From Acidobacteriota bacterium (GTDB lineage: Bacteria; Acidobacteriota; UBA890; WLXD01): 64,000 nt of DNA. Numbering within the stretch: position 1 is the stretch's first letter; the number at the start of each line of letters is the position of its first letter. The stretch is from positions 5,376,001 through 5,440,000 of the forward strand of contig CBDFKD010000002.1 in the NCBI GenBank assembly GCA_965248695.1, written 5' to 3'. The position numbers and the translations under genes are program-made. Shown here in pieces: positions 34,837-54,039 of this stretch. The notes beneath the pieces are model-generated. The model was not told the DNA's origin. It made no database searches and was given only the letters and a program-made list of their open reading frames with translations.

Positions 34837-34892
34837 CGGAGCGAGTCCGAACCACCCGGCCGACCGTCATGGATGCGCTTGTGTGGCATTCT

Positions 34893-35083
34893 CTAGCAGG
34901 CCGTGGTGGAAGTGTGGCGGGCCTGGCGACAGGGTCTTGCGAGGCGGAGGCAAGGAGAGAGGAGGAGGCGATGGTCACCCCATCGTTGACGACGAACGAC
35001 GCAGCATACGCGCGCAATCCCCTGTCGCCCGGAGGGTTACGGCGAGTAACCAGACCCACCACACTTCCACCACGGCCTGCTAG
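34893..35083. mobile_element. MITE-like element, 191 bp, 34-bp terminal inverted repeats bounded by CTAG
   Basis: Left CTAGCAGGCCGTGGTGGAAGTGTGGCGGGCCTGG matches the reverse complement of the right end with 2 mismatches; internal IR GGCGACAGGG/CCCTGTCGCC; no transposase. Confidence 0.75.
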
Positions 35084-35101
35084 GCTGCACAAGGAGGTTC
35101 G

Positions 35102-35959
35102 ATGGGGCTCATCAGCAAGGTCCGTTTCGCCGGCACCGCGACGCTGGCCGTCGTTGGCCTGCTCGCTTGGACGCACGAGCCGCCGCCCACGCTCGTCTAC
35201 CCCGTCGATCTGGTCCCGGCGGTCGACGGCTGGGTGGTCGCCGACTTCAAAGCGCACGGCTTGTTGAAACTGGCATCCACAGGTGAGATCGACCCCATCT
35301 ATCAGGGGTCAGGGATGCCGCGCTCGCCGCTGTACGGCACCCGGTCGGTCCTTCCCTCCCCCGATGGGGACGGCTGGATCGTCGCCGACCCCGGAACCTT
35401 CGGGCTCTACCGGGTCAGCTCCGACGGCGAGCTGTCGACGCTCACGACCGAGCTCGACATCCCGCAGGGCCTGGCGCGTTTCGATGATCAGTCGCTCCTG
35501 GTATCGGATCTTCGTAGCGGCATCGGCGCCGTGCACCGCGTCACCCTCGATGGTCGGGTCACGGTGTTCGCCGAGATCGAGAGTCCCAAGGGAATCGTCG
35601 CCGATGGTGACGACGCCTTCGCTGTCGTGTCGCACGGAGAACGCGCCGTGTTCCGTATTACGCGAGCCGGCCGGGTATCGACGATCGCGGCCGGTGAGCC
35701 GTTCGATTTCCCGCACGATCTCGTACGCGATCCGGATGGCAGCTTCGTGGTGACCGACGGCTATGCGGCCGCCCTTTTTCGCGTGTCTACCGAGGGGACG
35801 GTCAGTGTTCTGGCTCAGGGACCCCCGCTGATCAACCCGCAAGGGATCGTGCGCGACAACGATGGGTACGTGGTCGTGGATCCCCAGGCCGGGGCCGTCT
35901 TCCGGGTCTCGATGGACGGCGTGGTGACGAGCATCTTCACGGTGACCGCCACACCGTGA
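35102..35959 (+). CDS. Secreted NHL-repeat beta-propeller protein
   Basis: AAGGAGG RBS, signal/TM segment, repeated P.G/D.....G...V.D blades. Confidence 0.8.
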   Translation: MGLISKVRFAGTATLAVVGLLAWTHEPPPTLVYPVDLVPAVDGWVVADFKAHGLLKLASTGEIDPIYQGSGMPRSPLYGTRSVLPSPDGDGWIVADPGTFGLYRVSSDGELSTLTTELDIPQGLARFDDQSLLVSDLRSGIGAVHRVTLDGRVTVFAEIESPKGIVADGDDAFAVVSHGERAVFRITRAGRVSTIAAGEPFDFPHDLVRDPDGSFVVTDGYAAALFRVSTEGTVSVLAQGPPLINPQGIVRDNDGYVVVDPQAGAVFRVSMDGVVTSIFTVTATP

Positions 35960-49865: not shown

Positions 49866-52088
49866 ATGCGGAACCGTGCATACGCCTCCTTGGCCGGAGT
49901 GTTTCTGTCCGCGCTGGCCCTCTCGGTGCCGGCATTCGCGCAGACGGCCGACGATCCGATTCCGGCACGCGTGCGCTATTTCGAGGGAACCGTCACCGTC
50001 CAGCGAGCCCACGCTGCCGAGACCTCCGCGGCGTTAGTGAACCTGCCTCTGGACGCCGGCGACCGAATTTGGACCGACGGACAGGGGCGCGTCGAGCTCA
50101 CCTTCGGCGACGGCACGACGGTGTGGCTGGACCACCTGACGACGGTCGACGTCGTAGCCTTGCCACGCGCCGACGGCGCCACGATCCTACGCTTGTGGGG
50201 CGGCTCATTGATCGCCGAACGTCCGGGCGTCTACGAGCGCACGGAGCAGACCCTGCGCGTCGACACCGCCGAAGCGGGCATCGTCCTCCGACCACAGGGC
50301 TCCTACCGCATCGACCTCGACGACGAGCATCGCGTCTGGTTGTCGGTGTACGACGGCACCGCGACGATGACCGCCGGCGAGCTCACCGAGATCGTCGCCG
50401 CCGGCGAGACTACCTACGTCGAGCCCGGAACAGCCCCCGCCGAGGTGGCCGATTTCAACACCGCGGACAACGACGATTTCTCCAACTGGCAGATCGAGCG
50501 CTGGGTGGCCATGGCCGAGACCCAGAACCATGTTCGCAACCGCGACTATGTGCCCGAAGCCGCGCGTCCATACGCAGCTGATCTGGAGGGCAACGGCGAC
50601 TGGGTCTACTACGACGACTTCTCCTCCTACGCTTGGCGCCCCTCCGTCGACGTCGGCTGGGCCCCCTATCGTAACGGGCGATGGGTTTACTCCTACGCCG
50701 GGTGGACCTGGGTACCGTACGCCTCTTGGGGCTGGGCGACCGTCCACTACGGTCGCTGGCATCAAACGCCCTACTACGGCTGGATGTGGTTCCCGGGGAG
50801 TGTGTACTCGCCCGGCTGGGTGAGCTGGTATGCCGGTAGTGGCTATCTCGGATGGTCGCCCCTCGGCTACTACAATCGCCCGTTCCTGTCGGTGAACCTC
50901 TTCTTCGGCGGGCACTACGGCTACGGGCACGGGTACCACGGCGGCCGCAACTACGACTACGCCGTGCGACGGGGTGGCAAGGCGGTCGCCGGACAGGGGT
51001 ACGCCCGTAATCTCGACGGCGACCGTGGCTGGACGTTCGTCGATGCGGATCACTTCGGGACCGGCAAGACCGAGCTGCGCGCCACCTCTCGGACTGCCAT
51101 ACCGCGCCAGGGAACCGGGAACGCGGTGAGCTTCGAAGGCAAGCTCCGTCCTCGCAGGCCGGGGACTCTGGCGAACATTTCCGGCTCCGGCCGGAGCGCG
51201 GTGGCACGATCGGGCATCGCCCAGGGCACCGGCGCTCGCTCGACGACGGATCGTGGCATCGGTGTGCGCCCCACGCATCCGAGTCGCGGAGCTGCGGAGA
51301 GCGTCGGCGGGGCCGCTTCGCGCGGCGCTATACCGGGCGCAGCGGGAGATAGAGCCAAGGTGAGCCCACGTTCAGGACGCAGCGCACCATCCACGGCTAG
51401 AGAAGCACGGCCGCGAAGCGGCAGTGGCGAGACCGCTCGTCCGAGAGCGACGCCACGGGCTGGTAGCGGGTCGAGATCCGACAGTCGAGCTGGCGCCCGG
51501 CCGCGCTCCGGCTCTCCGTCGCGTGGATCATCGAAACCGCGAGCAGGATCGGCGCGGCGACCGCGCTCCGGTTCCGCAGGTCGGCCGCCGCGAACAGCAA
51601 CCTCCGGCGCGTCCGCGTCAGCCGGGCTGTCCCGTGCAGCCGGGCTGCCGACGCGCGCCAATCTGAGCGGGGCGCCCGCAGGCGTGAGACCGGAGAGCCC
51701 GGTCTCGCGTGGCGCGATCAGCCGGTATGCGCCGCGCACCAGCCAGTACCAACCGCAGACTCGCGCCTATCAGCCGCAAACGCGCGCCTACCAGCCGAAC
51801 ACCAACCGCTACCAGGCAAGCCCGCGATACTCGCCTTCGCGTCCATCGGCCACAAGATACTCACCATCGATCCAACCGCGCAGTGCTGTCGGCTCCCGCT
51901 CGGCGCCAGCGATGCCACGGTCGTTCTCGGCGCCGCGCTCGTTCTTGGCGCCACGCTCGGTCGGAGCGCCGCGAGGGTCAGCGGGCCGTCGCGGGGGCGT
52001 CATGTCCGGGCGGTCGTCGGCACCATCGCGCGGCTCGATGGGCAGATCGTCAGGACGAACGGCGACTCGGCGATCTGGGAGACGCTAG
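49866..52088 (+). CDS. Secreted FecR + DUF6600 protein with long Arg/Ser/Gly-rich tail
   Basis: Signal peptide; N.PL..GD..WT...R.E; W.PY..GRW, WGW...HYGRW; low-complexity C-terminus. Confidence 0.8.
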   Translation: MRNRAYASLAGVFLSALALSVPAFAQTADDPIPARVRYFEGTVTVQRAHAAETSAALVNLPLDAGDRIWTDGQGRVELTFGDGTTVWLDHLTTVDVVALPRADGATILRLWGGSLIAERPGVYERTEQTLRVDTAEAGIVLRPQGSYRIDLDDEHRVWLSVYDGTATMTAGELTEIVAAGETTYVEPGTAPAEVADFNTADNDDFSNWQIERWVAMAETQNHVRNRDYVPEAARPYAADLEGNGDWVYYDDFSSYAWRPSVDVGWAPYRNGRWVYSYAGWTWVPYASWGWATVHYGRWHQTPYYGWMWFPGSVYSPGWVSWYAGSGYLGWSPLGYYNRPFLSVNLFFGGHYGYGHGYHGGRNYDYAVRRGGKAVAGQGYARNLDGDRGWTFVDADHFGTGKTELRATSRTAIPRQGTGNAVSFEGKLRPRRPGTLANISGSGRSAVARSGIAQGTGARSTTDRGIGVRPTHPSRGAAESVGGAASRGAIPGAAGDRAKVSPRSGRSAPSTAREARPRSGSGETARPRATPRAGSGSRSDSRAGARPRSGSPSRGSSKPRAGSARRPRSGSAGRPPRTATSGASASAGLSRAAGLPTRANLSGAPAGVRPESPVSRGAISRYAPRTSQYQPQTRAYQPQTRAYQPNTNRYQASPRYSPSRPSATRYSPSIQPRSAVGSRSAPAMPRSFSAPRSFLAPRSVGAPRGSAGRRGGVMSGRSSAPSRGSMGRSSGRTATRRSGRR

Positions 52089-52103
52089 CGTCACGGCCCG
52101 CCA

Positions 52104-52478
52104 CTAGTTGAGCGACGGCCAACCTGCGTCGGACGCATCGATCGAAACCCGGTCCTTGAACGACTCCCAGGTGAAATGGCGATGCGATATCTCTGCTTCG
52201 TCGGGCGCCCAGCACCACAGCACGTTGGGGTCCGGCGTGCGGAAGTCAACTGTGAAGATGCCCTTCGGCTGCGCGCCCATCTCCAGGATAACGCGCGCCC
52301 ACTCGTCGAGAACAAGTCGGGTCTCGGCGTCGACCTCGTCGGCCGCCGACGGATCGGCCTTGTGCTCGTCGCGTAGCTCCCGCATACGCCGCCGCGTTGT
52401 TGCCGTCACCTGATTCACCAGTCGAAGCGCTCGGTTGGCCTCGTCGAGTGTGAAGATGCGAAAACGATGCTGTGACAC
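52104..52478 (-). CDS. DUF2203 family protein
   Basis: FTLDEAN.AL, G...K....VDF, WCW...E..I...H. Confidence 0.8.
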   Translation of the reverse strand: MSQHRFRIFTLDEANRALRLVNQVTATTRRRMRELRDEHKADPSAADEVDAETRLVLDEWARVILEMGAQPKGIFTVDFRTPDPNVLWCWAPDEAEISHRHFTWESFKDRVSIDASDAGWPSLN

Positions 52479-52548
52479 GAGTTCCTGCCCCCTTTTGCGC
52501 CGCACGGTAGCATGGCAGCAGCTTGTCGACGAAACTCGTCCGGGCATC

Positions 52549-52577
52549 TTGCCTATGGGTGGGTCCCCGGCTATGAT
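52549..52577 (+). promoter_or_regulatory. Sigma70 promoter
   Basis: TTGCCT-17 nt-TATGAT. Confidence 0.7.
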
Positions 52578-52583
52578 TCCGAG

Positions 52584-52775
52584 TGCCCCAGCCGCTAAGG
52601 GCGGGAGGGTCAGCCCCCCCCACCCCCGACCCCCGCCCTTTGAAGGGATTCCGGGTACCACCCACAGCCCACCCCACCGGAATCCCTCTGCGCTGAAACC
52701 GGTGCGGCGGCCAAAATGGCCGCCGCACCGGATTGAAACTCGGAGAAAGCCGGGCTCGCCCCGGCTTTCTCTATG
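52584..52775 (+). ncRNA. Candidate four-hairpin small RNA or leader with C-rich loops
   Basis: Hairpins at 52597-52640, 52644-52687, 52699-52731 and 52743-52771, downstream of the promoter. Confidence 0.65.
52743..52775 (+). terminator. Intrinsic terminator-like hairpin
   Basis: GAGAAAGCCGGG-CTCGC-CCCGGCTTTCTC, 12-bp stem with pyrimidine tail. Confidence 0.6.
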
Positions 52776-52813
52776 TCCGGATACCGCTACCGGCGGACCT
52801 CAGGAGCAAACGT

Positions 52814-53812
52814 GTGACCTCGGCGGTATCGCGAATCTTCTCGGGTATCCAGCCCACGGGCGAGCTCCACCTGGGCAACTACTTCGGCGCGGTGCGCAAT
52901 TGGGTGCGGCTGCAGGAGGAATACGCCCAGACCATCTACTGCGTCGTCGACTACCACGCCATTACCCATGAGATCGACGCCCGGGGCCTGCCCGAGCGCT
53001 CCCTGCGTCTGGCCGGCGACCTTATCGCCTGTGGCATCGATCCCGAGCGCTCGATCCTGTTCGTGCAATCACACGTACCGGAGCACACCGAGCTCGCGTG
53101 GGTCTTCAGTGCGTTCGCTGCGCATGGCGACCTGAGCCGGATGACCCAGTTCAAGGACAAGTCCGAGCGCAGCGGCTACGTCAACGCCGGATTGTTCACC
53201 TACCCGGTCCTGCAGGCGGCCGACATCCTCTTGTATCGCTCCGACGGCGTCCCGGTCGGCGATGACCAATCCCAGCATCTCGAGCTCACGCGCGGTATCG
53301 CGCATCGGTTCAATCAGACCGTCGGTACCGACTTCTTCCCGGACGTCCAGACGCTTCTTACCTCCGGAAGCCGGATCATGTCGCTCGCCGACCCGTCGCG
53401 GAAGATGAGCAAGAGCCTCGGCGAAAAGCACTACATAGGGGTAATGGAGTCACCGGAGTCCGCCACCAAGAAGATCCGCTCCGCGGTCACAGACAGCGGC
53501 GACGCAACGAGCGACGAGCTCAGCCCCGGCGTCGCCAACCTGATCGGCATCTTGAGGCTGCTGGAGGCAGATGCGATCGCCGACGAGATGGCCGGCGCCG
53601 CGCAGGCCGGTGAGCTGATGTACGGCGAGCTCAAGGCCGCCGTCGCGGACCATCTGACCGCCGCGCTGGAACCGACGCGCGCGCGCCGCGCAGAGCTCGA
53701 CGATGCCGACATCGCCGCCACCTTGAAGACCGGCGCCGACCGCGCCCGAGAGATCGCCGCCGAGACGATGAGCCATGTCCGGCGGCTGATCGGTGTTGGC
53801 GCGGCTCGCTGA
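52814..53812 (+). CDS. trpS: Tryptophanyl-tRNA synthetase
   Basis: SGIQPTG..HLGNY, YPVLQAADIL, VPVG.DQ, KMSKS. Confidence 0.97.
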   Translation: MTSAVSRIFSGIQPTGELHLGNYFGAVRNWVRLQEEYAQTIYCVVDYHAITHEIDARGLPERSLRLAGDLIACGIDPERSILFVQSHVPEHTELAWVFSAFAAHGDLSRMTQFKDKSERSGYVNAGLFTYPVLQAADILLYRSDGVPVGDDQSQHLELTRGIAHRFNQTVGTDFFPDVQTLLTSGSRIMSLADPSRKMSKSLGEKHYIGVMESPESATKKIRSAVTDSGDATSDELSPGVANLIGILRLLEADAIADEMAGAAQAGELMYGELKAAVADHLTAALEPTRARRAELDDADIAATLKTGADRAREIAAETMSHVRRLIGVGAAR

Positions 53813-53912
53813 GCCAGCGTCATATCTCCAGGGCTTCCCGGGGCCGAGGGAAAGGGATCGAGCAAGCTGTCCTTTCCTGTCCCGTCATAGTCAGTATTAG
53901 TTACTATTAATC

Positions 53913-53931
53913 AGTTATAGATTCTATAACT
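53913..53931. promoter_or_regulatory. Palindrome in AT-rich island
   Basis: AGTTATAGA-T-TCTATAACT, perfect 9-1-9 inverted repeat. Confidence 0.5.
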
Positions 53932-54039
53932 CTATATAAATGTCTTATAGTGTGACCAGGCTTCAGTTACATTTCACAGCGTACTGAGTCTCAGCAAACG
54001 GGATTGGGTCTCCCTCTTGCAGCAGACCAGGAAATGCTC

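Follow-up and report, generated by a model that had tools for sequence, protein, structure and literature searches.

A single-copy structured RNA with C-rich hairpin loops ahead of trpS in one class of Acidobacteriota: a candidate RNA family

In RsaE/RoxS of the Firmicutes and in CcsR/cuckoo of the Alphaproteobacteria, C-rich loop motifs pair with G-rich Shine-Dalgarno regions, and the cuckoo family is present as tandem copies within a genome. RNA structure is also put to use ahead of aminoacyl-tRNA synthetase genes, as in the thrS operator of Escherichia coli, where two hairpins that mimic the anticodon arm of a tRNA bind the dimeric enzyme. In the put RNA of phage HK022, stems and loops are both constrained in sequence and contact RNA polymerase. 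The 6C RNA (B11) of Actinobacteria needs no chaperone: its C-rich loops are reported to base-pair directly to G-rich ribosome-binding regions (PMC6486639). The rnTrpL RNA of Sinorhizobium is reported to be a short RNA that termination releases from a tryptophan-related operon leader and that also acts in trans, providing a precedent for a leader that doubles as a small RNA (PMC6614838).

The window analysed here, a stretch of 64,000 nucleotides from an Acidobacteriota bacterium, contains a locus that shares features with these systems. The 335-nt spacer between a DUF2203 gene on the minus strand and the divergent trpS gene on the plus strand holds a promoter and four hairpins (Table 1). A preliminary description of this DNA had read the spacer as a promoter-to-terminator small RNA of ∼190 nt; its TTGCCT-N17-TATGAT promoter and all four hairpins are present base for base at the positions listed, and the unit as a whole is supported, being conserved in relatives and single-copy.

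Table 1. Features of the spacer upstream of trpS and of its flanking genes. Positions follow the numbering of the window; H1-H4 denote hairpins 1-4, f1 the family of the window and f2 its sister family.
Feature	Position	Strand	Description
Sigma-70-type promoter	52549..52577	+	TTGCCT -35 (52549-52554), 17-nt spacer, TATGAT -10 (52572-52577)
Single-stranded 5′ tail (..CCCCAGCCGCU..)	52584..52596	+	Kept in f1 only (19-sequence alignment)
Hairpin 1 (H1)	52597..52640	+	G-rich 5′ arm, 2-nt bulge, 4-bp inner stem, 16-nt loop
Hairpin 2 (H2)	52644..52687	+	Perfect 11-bp stem, 22-nt loop
Hairpin 3 (H3)	52698..52732	+	Perfect 15-bp GC-rich stem; f1 only; sequence differs between genera
Hairpin 4 (H4)	52743..52771	+	12-bp stem GAGAAAGCCGGG / CCCGGCTTTCTC
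H4 and U-rich tail, intrinsic-terminator-like	52743..52779	+	A-tract, GCCGGG/CCCGGC core, UUUCUCUAUGU
trpS and Shine-Dalgarno sequence	52802..53812	+	AGGAG (52802-52806), GTG start (52814)
DUF2203 protein gene	52104..52478	-	124 aa; Pfam PF09969, 6.3e-13; start at 52478

The promoter of the RNA is the one sigma-70-like site that a promoter scan found on either strand of 52000-53900 (mean of 0.3 in shuffled sequence), and transcription would start at about 52583-52585. The outer arm of H1 is formed by AAGGGCGGG and CCCGCCCTT, and its loop, AGCCCCCCCCACCCCC (52612-52627, 16 nt), contains runs of eight and five C (C8 and C5). The loop of H2, GTACCACCCACAGCCCACCCCA (52655-52676, 22 nt), has 13 C in its 22 nt, such that the two loops, which are predicted to be unpaired, together hold 26 C in 38 nt (68% C) in a genome with a G+C content of 65%. 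The 3′ half of loop 2, GCCCACCCCA (52667-52676), is the sole loop segment invariant in all aligned homologues; it includes the CCCACCCC put forward in the preliminary description as a seed, and we regard it as a candidate seed or binding site. Folding of the plus strand gave -123.2 kcal/mol against -94.0 ± 4.8 kcal/mol for 200 shuffled sequences (z = -6.1), with none of the 200 as good. The minus strand folds nearly as strongly (z = -5.5), so the strand is not assignable from folding alone. The minimum-energy fold of the window has a helix (P0) that encloses H1 and H2, while the consensus fold does without it.

H1 and H2 form the conserved core of the RNA, with 82-97% identity across the class; the exceptions are a copy with a partial deletion (73%) and a match cut short by its contig (81%). 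In both hairpins the stems as well as the C-rich loops are nearly invariant. The alignment of 19 sequences has 118 columns, of which 48 show no variation and another 17 hardly any; the two H2 arms and the conserved segment of the H2 loop are among them. The neighbouring DUF2203 protein is 49-60% identical between f1 and f2; by this measure the RNA appears better conserved than the proteins that surround it. The C-run of loop 1 ranges from 5 to 20 C among homologues, one copy being without any A, with the caution that homopolymer lengths in assemblies may be unreliable. Upstream, the promoter hexamers TTGC.. and TAT(G/C)AT are found in all 19 loci that include upstream DNA, at -128 to -139 from the end of H2, and the sequence of the promoter spacer varies between them.

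The covariation check proposed in the preliminary description came out differently for the two halves of the RNA. In H3 and H4, which occur in f1 only, compensatory changes are seen in 4 of 20 pairs, and the helices are kept despite sequence differences between genera; the alignment covers nine of the 11 f1 loci, without the differently arranged L014 and L019. For H1 and H2, the covariation support that the alignment offers is minimal, because the sequence hardly varies: H1 has one compensatory pair, G-C to A-U, in five sequences, and in H2 eight of the ten modelled stem pairs never vary and the other two change to U-G alone. The U-G pairs in H2 and the G-U pairs in H4, together with the promoter upstream and the U-tracts downstream, point to an RNA on the plus strand.

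The same locus is the only full-length match in the 5.89-Mb genome. Of 26 genomes of the order, 20 each gave a single match to a covariance model built from 19 copies of the RNA, and so did all 12 of those with at least 90% completeness and at most 5% contamination. The possibility that the hairpins are simply high-copy, REP-like repeats, which the preliminary description had allowed for, thus fails. Among 40 relatives, a DNA search found the RNA in 10/10 f1 genomes and 10/15 f2 genomes, and a search of 15 genomes of the class that are at least 85% complete returned matches from f1 and f2 alone. In a sample of 151 genomes of the phylum, 13 members of the class matched the covariance model at E ≤ 3e-21, and none of the other 138 did so below E 0.1. 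When 185,579 species genomes were scanned with a sequence pattern, 18 matches came up, with titles that name Acidobacteriota or Acidobacteria metagenome-assembled genomes (MAGs) in 16 cases, an “uncultured bacterium” in one and “Dehalococcoidia” in one. Every genome that carries the RNA is metagenome-assembled. In metagenomes, a loose pattern yielded at least four copies that are true by the covariance model, among the 115 matches listed; the pattern was too loose, so the environmental spread of the RNA is under-sampled. Among the genomes searched, the RNA appears confined to one uncultured class of Acidobacteriota.

The gene order around the RNA is fixed as DUF2203 ← RNA → (aminotransferase →) trpS. 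The divergent DUF2203 gene lies upstream in 20 of the 21 genome loci, the remaining contig beginning within the RNA. Downstream, trpS follows directly in six loci, which belong to genera g1 (that of the window) and g2, and a PLP-dependent aminotransferase gene comes next in 14, with trpS behind it in 13 and one contig ending early; one further contig stops inside the RNA. The RNA is always found with the (aminotransferase-)trpS unit, in the 21 genome loci and, in the same gene order, in four distinct metagenome loci, besides L048, a duplicate of L121. Outside the class, neither trpS nor this aminotransferase gene was found within ∼1.5 kb of DUF2203 genes in the 15 loci examined. One g2 locus (L019) has ∼170 nt of extra non-coding sequence between the terminator-like hairpin and trpS where the aminotransferase gene is missing, and this sequence may be a remnant of its deletion.

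The trpS product matches Pfam tRNA-synt_1b (2.4e-71) and the NCBIfam trpS equivalog (308 bits, cut-off 176.75). The enzyme (TrpRS) is 332 aa long and the trpS model spans residues 7-327, with no extra domain evident; a tblastn search found one tryptophan--tRNA ligase gene in the whole genome. Between the promoter of the RNA and the downstream start codon, no second promoter-like site was present in 19/19 loci, even at 8 of 12 matches. With no other promoter and a single-copy trpS, we infer that trpS is transcribed from the promoter of the RNA and through its hairpins. The RNA would therefore also be the 5′ part of the trpS transcript, a point absent from the preliminary description.

On the DUF2203 side of the promoter, ACGGTAGCA(T/C)G is kept in f1 at ∼52504-52515, and its minus-strand reading, TGCTACCGT, resembles an extended -10 element that would serve DUF2203, ∼25-30 nt before the start codon. 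An AlphaFold model of the DUF2203 protein (pLDDT 88.3) shows a two-helix hairpin and a small beta domain, and the invariant residues include W60, K72-G73, V77-D78-F79, C89-W90, E94, H101, and R110. The model had no PDB match at E ≤ 0.001 in Foldseek, and VIA-align gave generic helical-hairpin matches (Z ≤ 5.8); the predicted fold provides no lead on RNA or RNA-polymerase binding.

With GCCGGG-CTCGC-CCCGGC taken as its stem and loop and TTTCTCTAT as its tail, H4 has the shape typical of an intrinsic terminator. A terminator scan of 52000-53900 found none and left H4 unflagged, probably because the stem runs over the A- and U-tracts. In the other genera of f1, a hairpin homologous to H4 is followed by a clearer U-tract than that of the window, and in the f1 loci that were folded the strong hairpin with its U-tract ends ∼15-45 nt before the start codon. 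No terminator follows H2 in f2, where 54-87 nt of weakly structured, variable sequence lead to the start codon of the aminotransferase gene. Across loci, the distance from H2 to the Shine-Dalgarno sequence is 54-217 nt, and the intervening structures are varied.

The preliminary description had named a trpS attenuator as the alternative to a small RNA, and in its classical form this suggestion does not hold up. Folding of the window gave no antiterminator that rivals H4, the four hairpins being independent and stable, and forbidding H4 cost 16.7 kcal/mol. When the transcript was ended just short of the 3′ arm of H4, the GCCGGG core of the 5′ arm lay in a weak helix of 4-5 bp and its A-tract part stayed unpaired; RNAalifold placed neither an enclosing nor an alternative helix in the consensus. 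No leader-peptide reading frame is kept among homologues, and indels of 1 nt and 7 nt inside the conserved region exclude a conserved open reading frame. The conserved plus-strand part holds neither the UGG specifier nor the T-box sequence of a T-box, the GGGTGGTACC string occurring on the opposite strand only, and the gene next to the RNA is that of the aminotransferase in most loci.

In comparison with known RNAs, the sequence appears to match no catalogued family, although in kind it would resemble the small RNAs with C-rich loops. At gathering thresholds Rfam gave no match in the whole window, and at E ≤ 10 a search of 51500-54000 with Rfam 15 gave nine weak matches, none of which reached its gathering score. 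The best of these, Collinsella-1 (52642-52830; E 0.0017; 23.9 bits against a gathering score of 35), extends from H2 through H4 into the region of the trpS start and owes its score to generic GC hairpins; isrK (23.1 against 50 bits) and Pxr (20.7 against 80) also stayed below threshold. The 6C, cuckoo/CcsR, RsaE, Acido-1, and T-box models were unmatched at E ≤ 10 in 51500-54000, and the kinship with cuckoo/CcsR, RsaE or Acido-1 that the preliminary description had considered is thus not borne out. Like 6C, the RNA would be a promoter-to-terminator small RNA, in a high-G+C host in which no Hfq gene was found (genome 96% complete), with runs of C as conserved hairpin loops, high conservation and stable synteny. 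The 6C feature of loops with runs of six or more C is present here in the C8 of loop 1. The RNA differs from 6C in its phylum, in the lack of an Rfam match, in its loops, which are much longer (16 and 22 nt) and have A among the C, and in that transcription would reach an essential tRNA synthetase gene only through it. It shares with RsaE/RoxS and CcsR/cuckoo the repeated C-rich motifs exposed in hairpin loops, but its C-runs are broken by A (CCCACCCC) instead of reading UCCC or CCUCCUCCC, the complement of its motif is not a canonical Shine-Dalgarno sequence, and, unlike cuckoo, it has one copy per genome.

Other likenesses lie with leaders. Like the T-box and E. coli thrS leaders, the RNA is structured, stands upstream of an aminoacyl-tRNA synthetase gene and has a terminator before the start codon, but its loops are 16-22 nt long, unlike 7-nt loops of the anticodon type. 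As in put, the layout is a promoter, two conserved stem-loops, terminators, and genes; unlike put, it belongs to a chromosomal unit of one or two genes and not to a long operon, and in f2 there is no terminator to overcome. The rnTrpL RNA derives from an attenuator ahead of trpE that depends on the ribosome, on a leader peptide containing Trp codons and on alternative hairpins, whereas the RNA described here precedes trpS and has neither a leader reading frame nor an alternative fold. What appears to set it apart from the small RNAs with C-rich loops is the combination of much longer loops, invariant stems, and an obligatory place at the head of the sole trpS.

Target searches were crude, based on k-mer complementarity in a single genome. 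The exact complement of the invariant 10-mer occurs at nine sites outside the locus, against 5-67 for composition-matched shuffles. Genome-wide, complementary G-rich 9- to 12-mers were not enriched (411 against 414 for reversed controls in the case of 10-mers), and neither were complementary sites near the starts of open reading frames (22/296 against 18/322 for reversed controls, and 5-7% in eight shuffles). Three individual mRNAs were rejected as targets: Obg, in which the site lies inside the coding region and is not conserved; ferritin, in which the G-run Shine-Dalgarno sequence is confined to the genus of the window; and DUF2203, in which a G5 run upstream of the start is found in that genus only. 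Several genes in the genus of the window have ribosome-binding G-runs of the AAGGGGG type, for example DUF2203 (52484-52496, minus strand) and a ferritin-like gene (G000 C1:41977-41993), and pairing between these and the C-rich loops is conceivable. In the other genera GGAGG or GAAAGGA takes their place, and the G-runs are not conserved class-wide.

Two further genes have perfect complements next to their starts. A three-copy P-loop gene (GGAAGGGKT in the translated copy; 483-489 aa; one copy at G000 C2:703932-705401, outside the window) has GGGGTGGGGG, a perfect complement of loop 1, directly before its GTG start. In a two-copy gene for a 184-aa protein, the string that lies 2 nt ahead of the ATG start, GGGGTGGGCT, is fully complementary to the invariant part of loop 2. 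Both genes probably belong to mobile elements. Near its 3′ end, 16S rRNA has a match of 7 nt (UGGGGUG) only, which we judged to be chance. RNAduplex comparisons with all 59 tRNAs found by aragorn gave full-length duplexes and were uninformative, with tRNA-Trp in 8th place. The aragorn set includes two tRNA-SeC(tca) genes (G000 C2:4678307-4678404 and C2:5559422-5559519), both outside the window.

The explanation we tentatively prefer, with rather less than even confidence, is a 6C-like, Hfq-independent small RNA with C-rich loops that is freed by termination, trpS being supplied by read-through. The RNA, structured, ∼190 nt long and specific to the class, would be made from its own strong promoter and, in f1, would end at the intrinsic terminator H4. 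Its working part would be two rigid hairpins, each presenting a long, unpaired and C-rich loop, with GCCCACCCCA in loop 2, and the loops would form G-C pairs with G-rich single-stranded RNA, or be read by a protein, without Hfq. As the promoter of the RNA is the only one available to trpS, the same transcription unit would also supply trpS (aminotransferase-trpS in most relatives) through read-through of H4, and the RNA would be a leader-derived, dual-use transcript. A small RNA of this kind agrees with the promoter conserved in 19/19 loci, the f1 terminator, the single copy per genome, the conserved unpaired C-rich loops, the plus-strand pairing changes, the lack of an antiterminator, and the lack of an Hfq gene, which fits the 6C mechanism. 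It agrees less well with f2, where the RNA has no terminator and resembles a plain 5′ UTR, or with the fact that the RNA never stands away from the (aminotransferase-)trpS unit. Complementary sites are neither enriched nor conserved, simple seed pairing would not need stems as invariant as the loops, and covariation in H1 and H2 is minimal, with one compensatory pair.

Invariant stems and loops do suit recognition by a conserved protein, as expected from a close rival that is possible rather than probable: a cis leader of (aminotransferase-)trpS, in which H1 and H2 would dock a trans factor that sets the transcription or translation reaching trpS, the short RNA being a by-product. The factor could be Rho, whose preference is for unpaired C-rich RNA, or else TrpRS, another RNA-binding protein, or RNA polymerase in a put-like processive antitermination. 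Synteny is strict in every locus, the RNA is kept directly upstream of trpS where the aminotransferase gene is missing (g1 and g2), no other promoter-like site precedes the start codon of the unit in 19/19 loci and trpS is single-copy; the f1 terminator, ∼15-45 nt before the start codon, is in the usual place of an attenuator, and in f2 the RNA is simply the 5′ UTR. However, no alternative fold joins the conserved domain to the terminator, and there is no common expression platform, f1 having a terminator and f2 no recognisable element; the distance (54-217 nt) and the structures between H2 and the Shine-Dalgarno sequence also vary widely. T-box, leader-peptide, and known riboswitch features are missing, a conserved reading frame being excluded by the indels in the loops; TrpRS is a standard 332-aa enzyme with no extra domain evident; and an operon of one or two genes is unlike known processive-antitermination systems. 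A more specific proposal, and an improbable one, is a sensor of tryptophan status, in which CCA arrays would be read in cis by dimeric TrpRS (through tRNA mimicry as in thrS, with another architecture) or by tryptophan, with transcription then either ending at H4 or continuing into trpS. CCA, which abounds in the loops, is the anticodon of tRNA-Trp and also the universal 3′ end of tRNAs; in at least three homologues loop 1 is without CCA. An unlikely explanation is that of a passive structural element, whose 5′ hairpins would stabilise the mRNA against 5′-end-dependent decay or insulate the divergent promoters and would have no partner in regulation. The hairpins are indeed stable and near the 5′ end, their position after the promoter is fixed, and the searches gave no partner or target; yet a stabiliser needs structure only, while 48 of 118 columns are invariant, unpaired loop positions included, in a class in which DUF2203 proteins are only 49-60% identical between families, and the terminators before an essential gene would be left unexplained. 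Very improbable, in our view, is a DNA-level element that controls the divergent promoters, either through G-quadruplexes in the G-rich template strand (GGGGGTGGGGGGGG, GGGGTGGGCTGTGGGTGG) or through inverted repeats that bind a transcription factor. The minus strand has at least four G-tracts under each loop and the arms of H2 are an invariant inverted repeat, but their spacing shifts by 1 and 7 nt among homologues, too much for a dimeric DNA-binding site, and selection for RNA pairing on the plus strand is indicated by H1, with its compensatory G-C to A-U change, and by the U-G changes of H2. The position of the RNA between its promoter and a terminator on the same strand also speaks against this reading.

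If the preferred reading as a 6C-like small RNA is correct, chaperone-free pairing by C-rich loops would extend beyond the Gram-positive phyla and could be a general answer for high-G+C genomes; if it works as a leader sensing TrpRS, Rho or tryptophan, the RNA would represent a new control of an essential tRNA synthetase. On either reading, the sole trpS would depend on transcription through a terminator-bearing RNA. To our knowledge, almost nothing has been described of RNA regulators in Acidobacteriota, and we know of no cultured member of this class. Single-copy and present in every good genome of the class, the RNA is a clean candidate for a new RNA family.

The window also contains what looks like the opposite of a single-copy RNA. 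At 34885-35095, in the spacer before an open reading frame that starts at 35102, lies a long hairpin with 34-nt arms that are 94% complementary and 123 nt apart (-133.4 kcal/mol, z = -10.1). This hairpin has 106 matches in the genome and 57-116 in many f1 and f2 relatives, in repeat units of ∼150-190 nt with up to 96% identity, and looks like a MITE- or REP-like family of structured repeats of the class.
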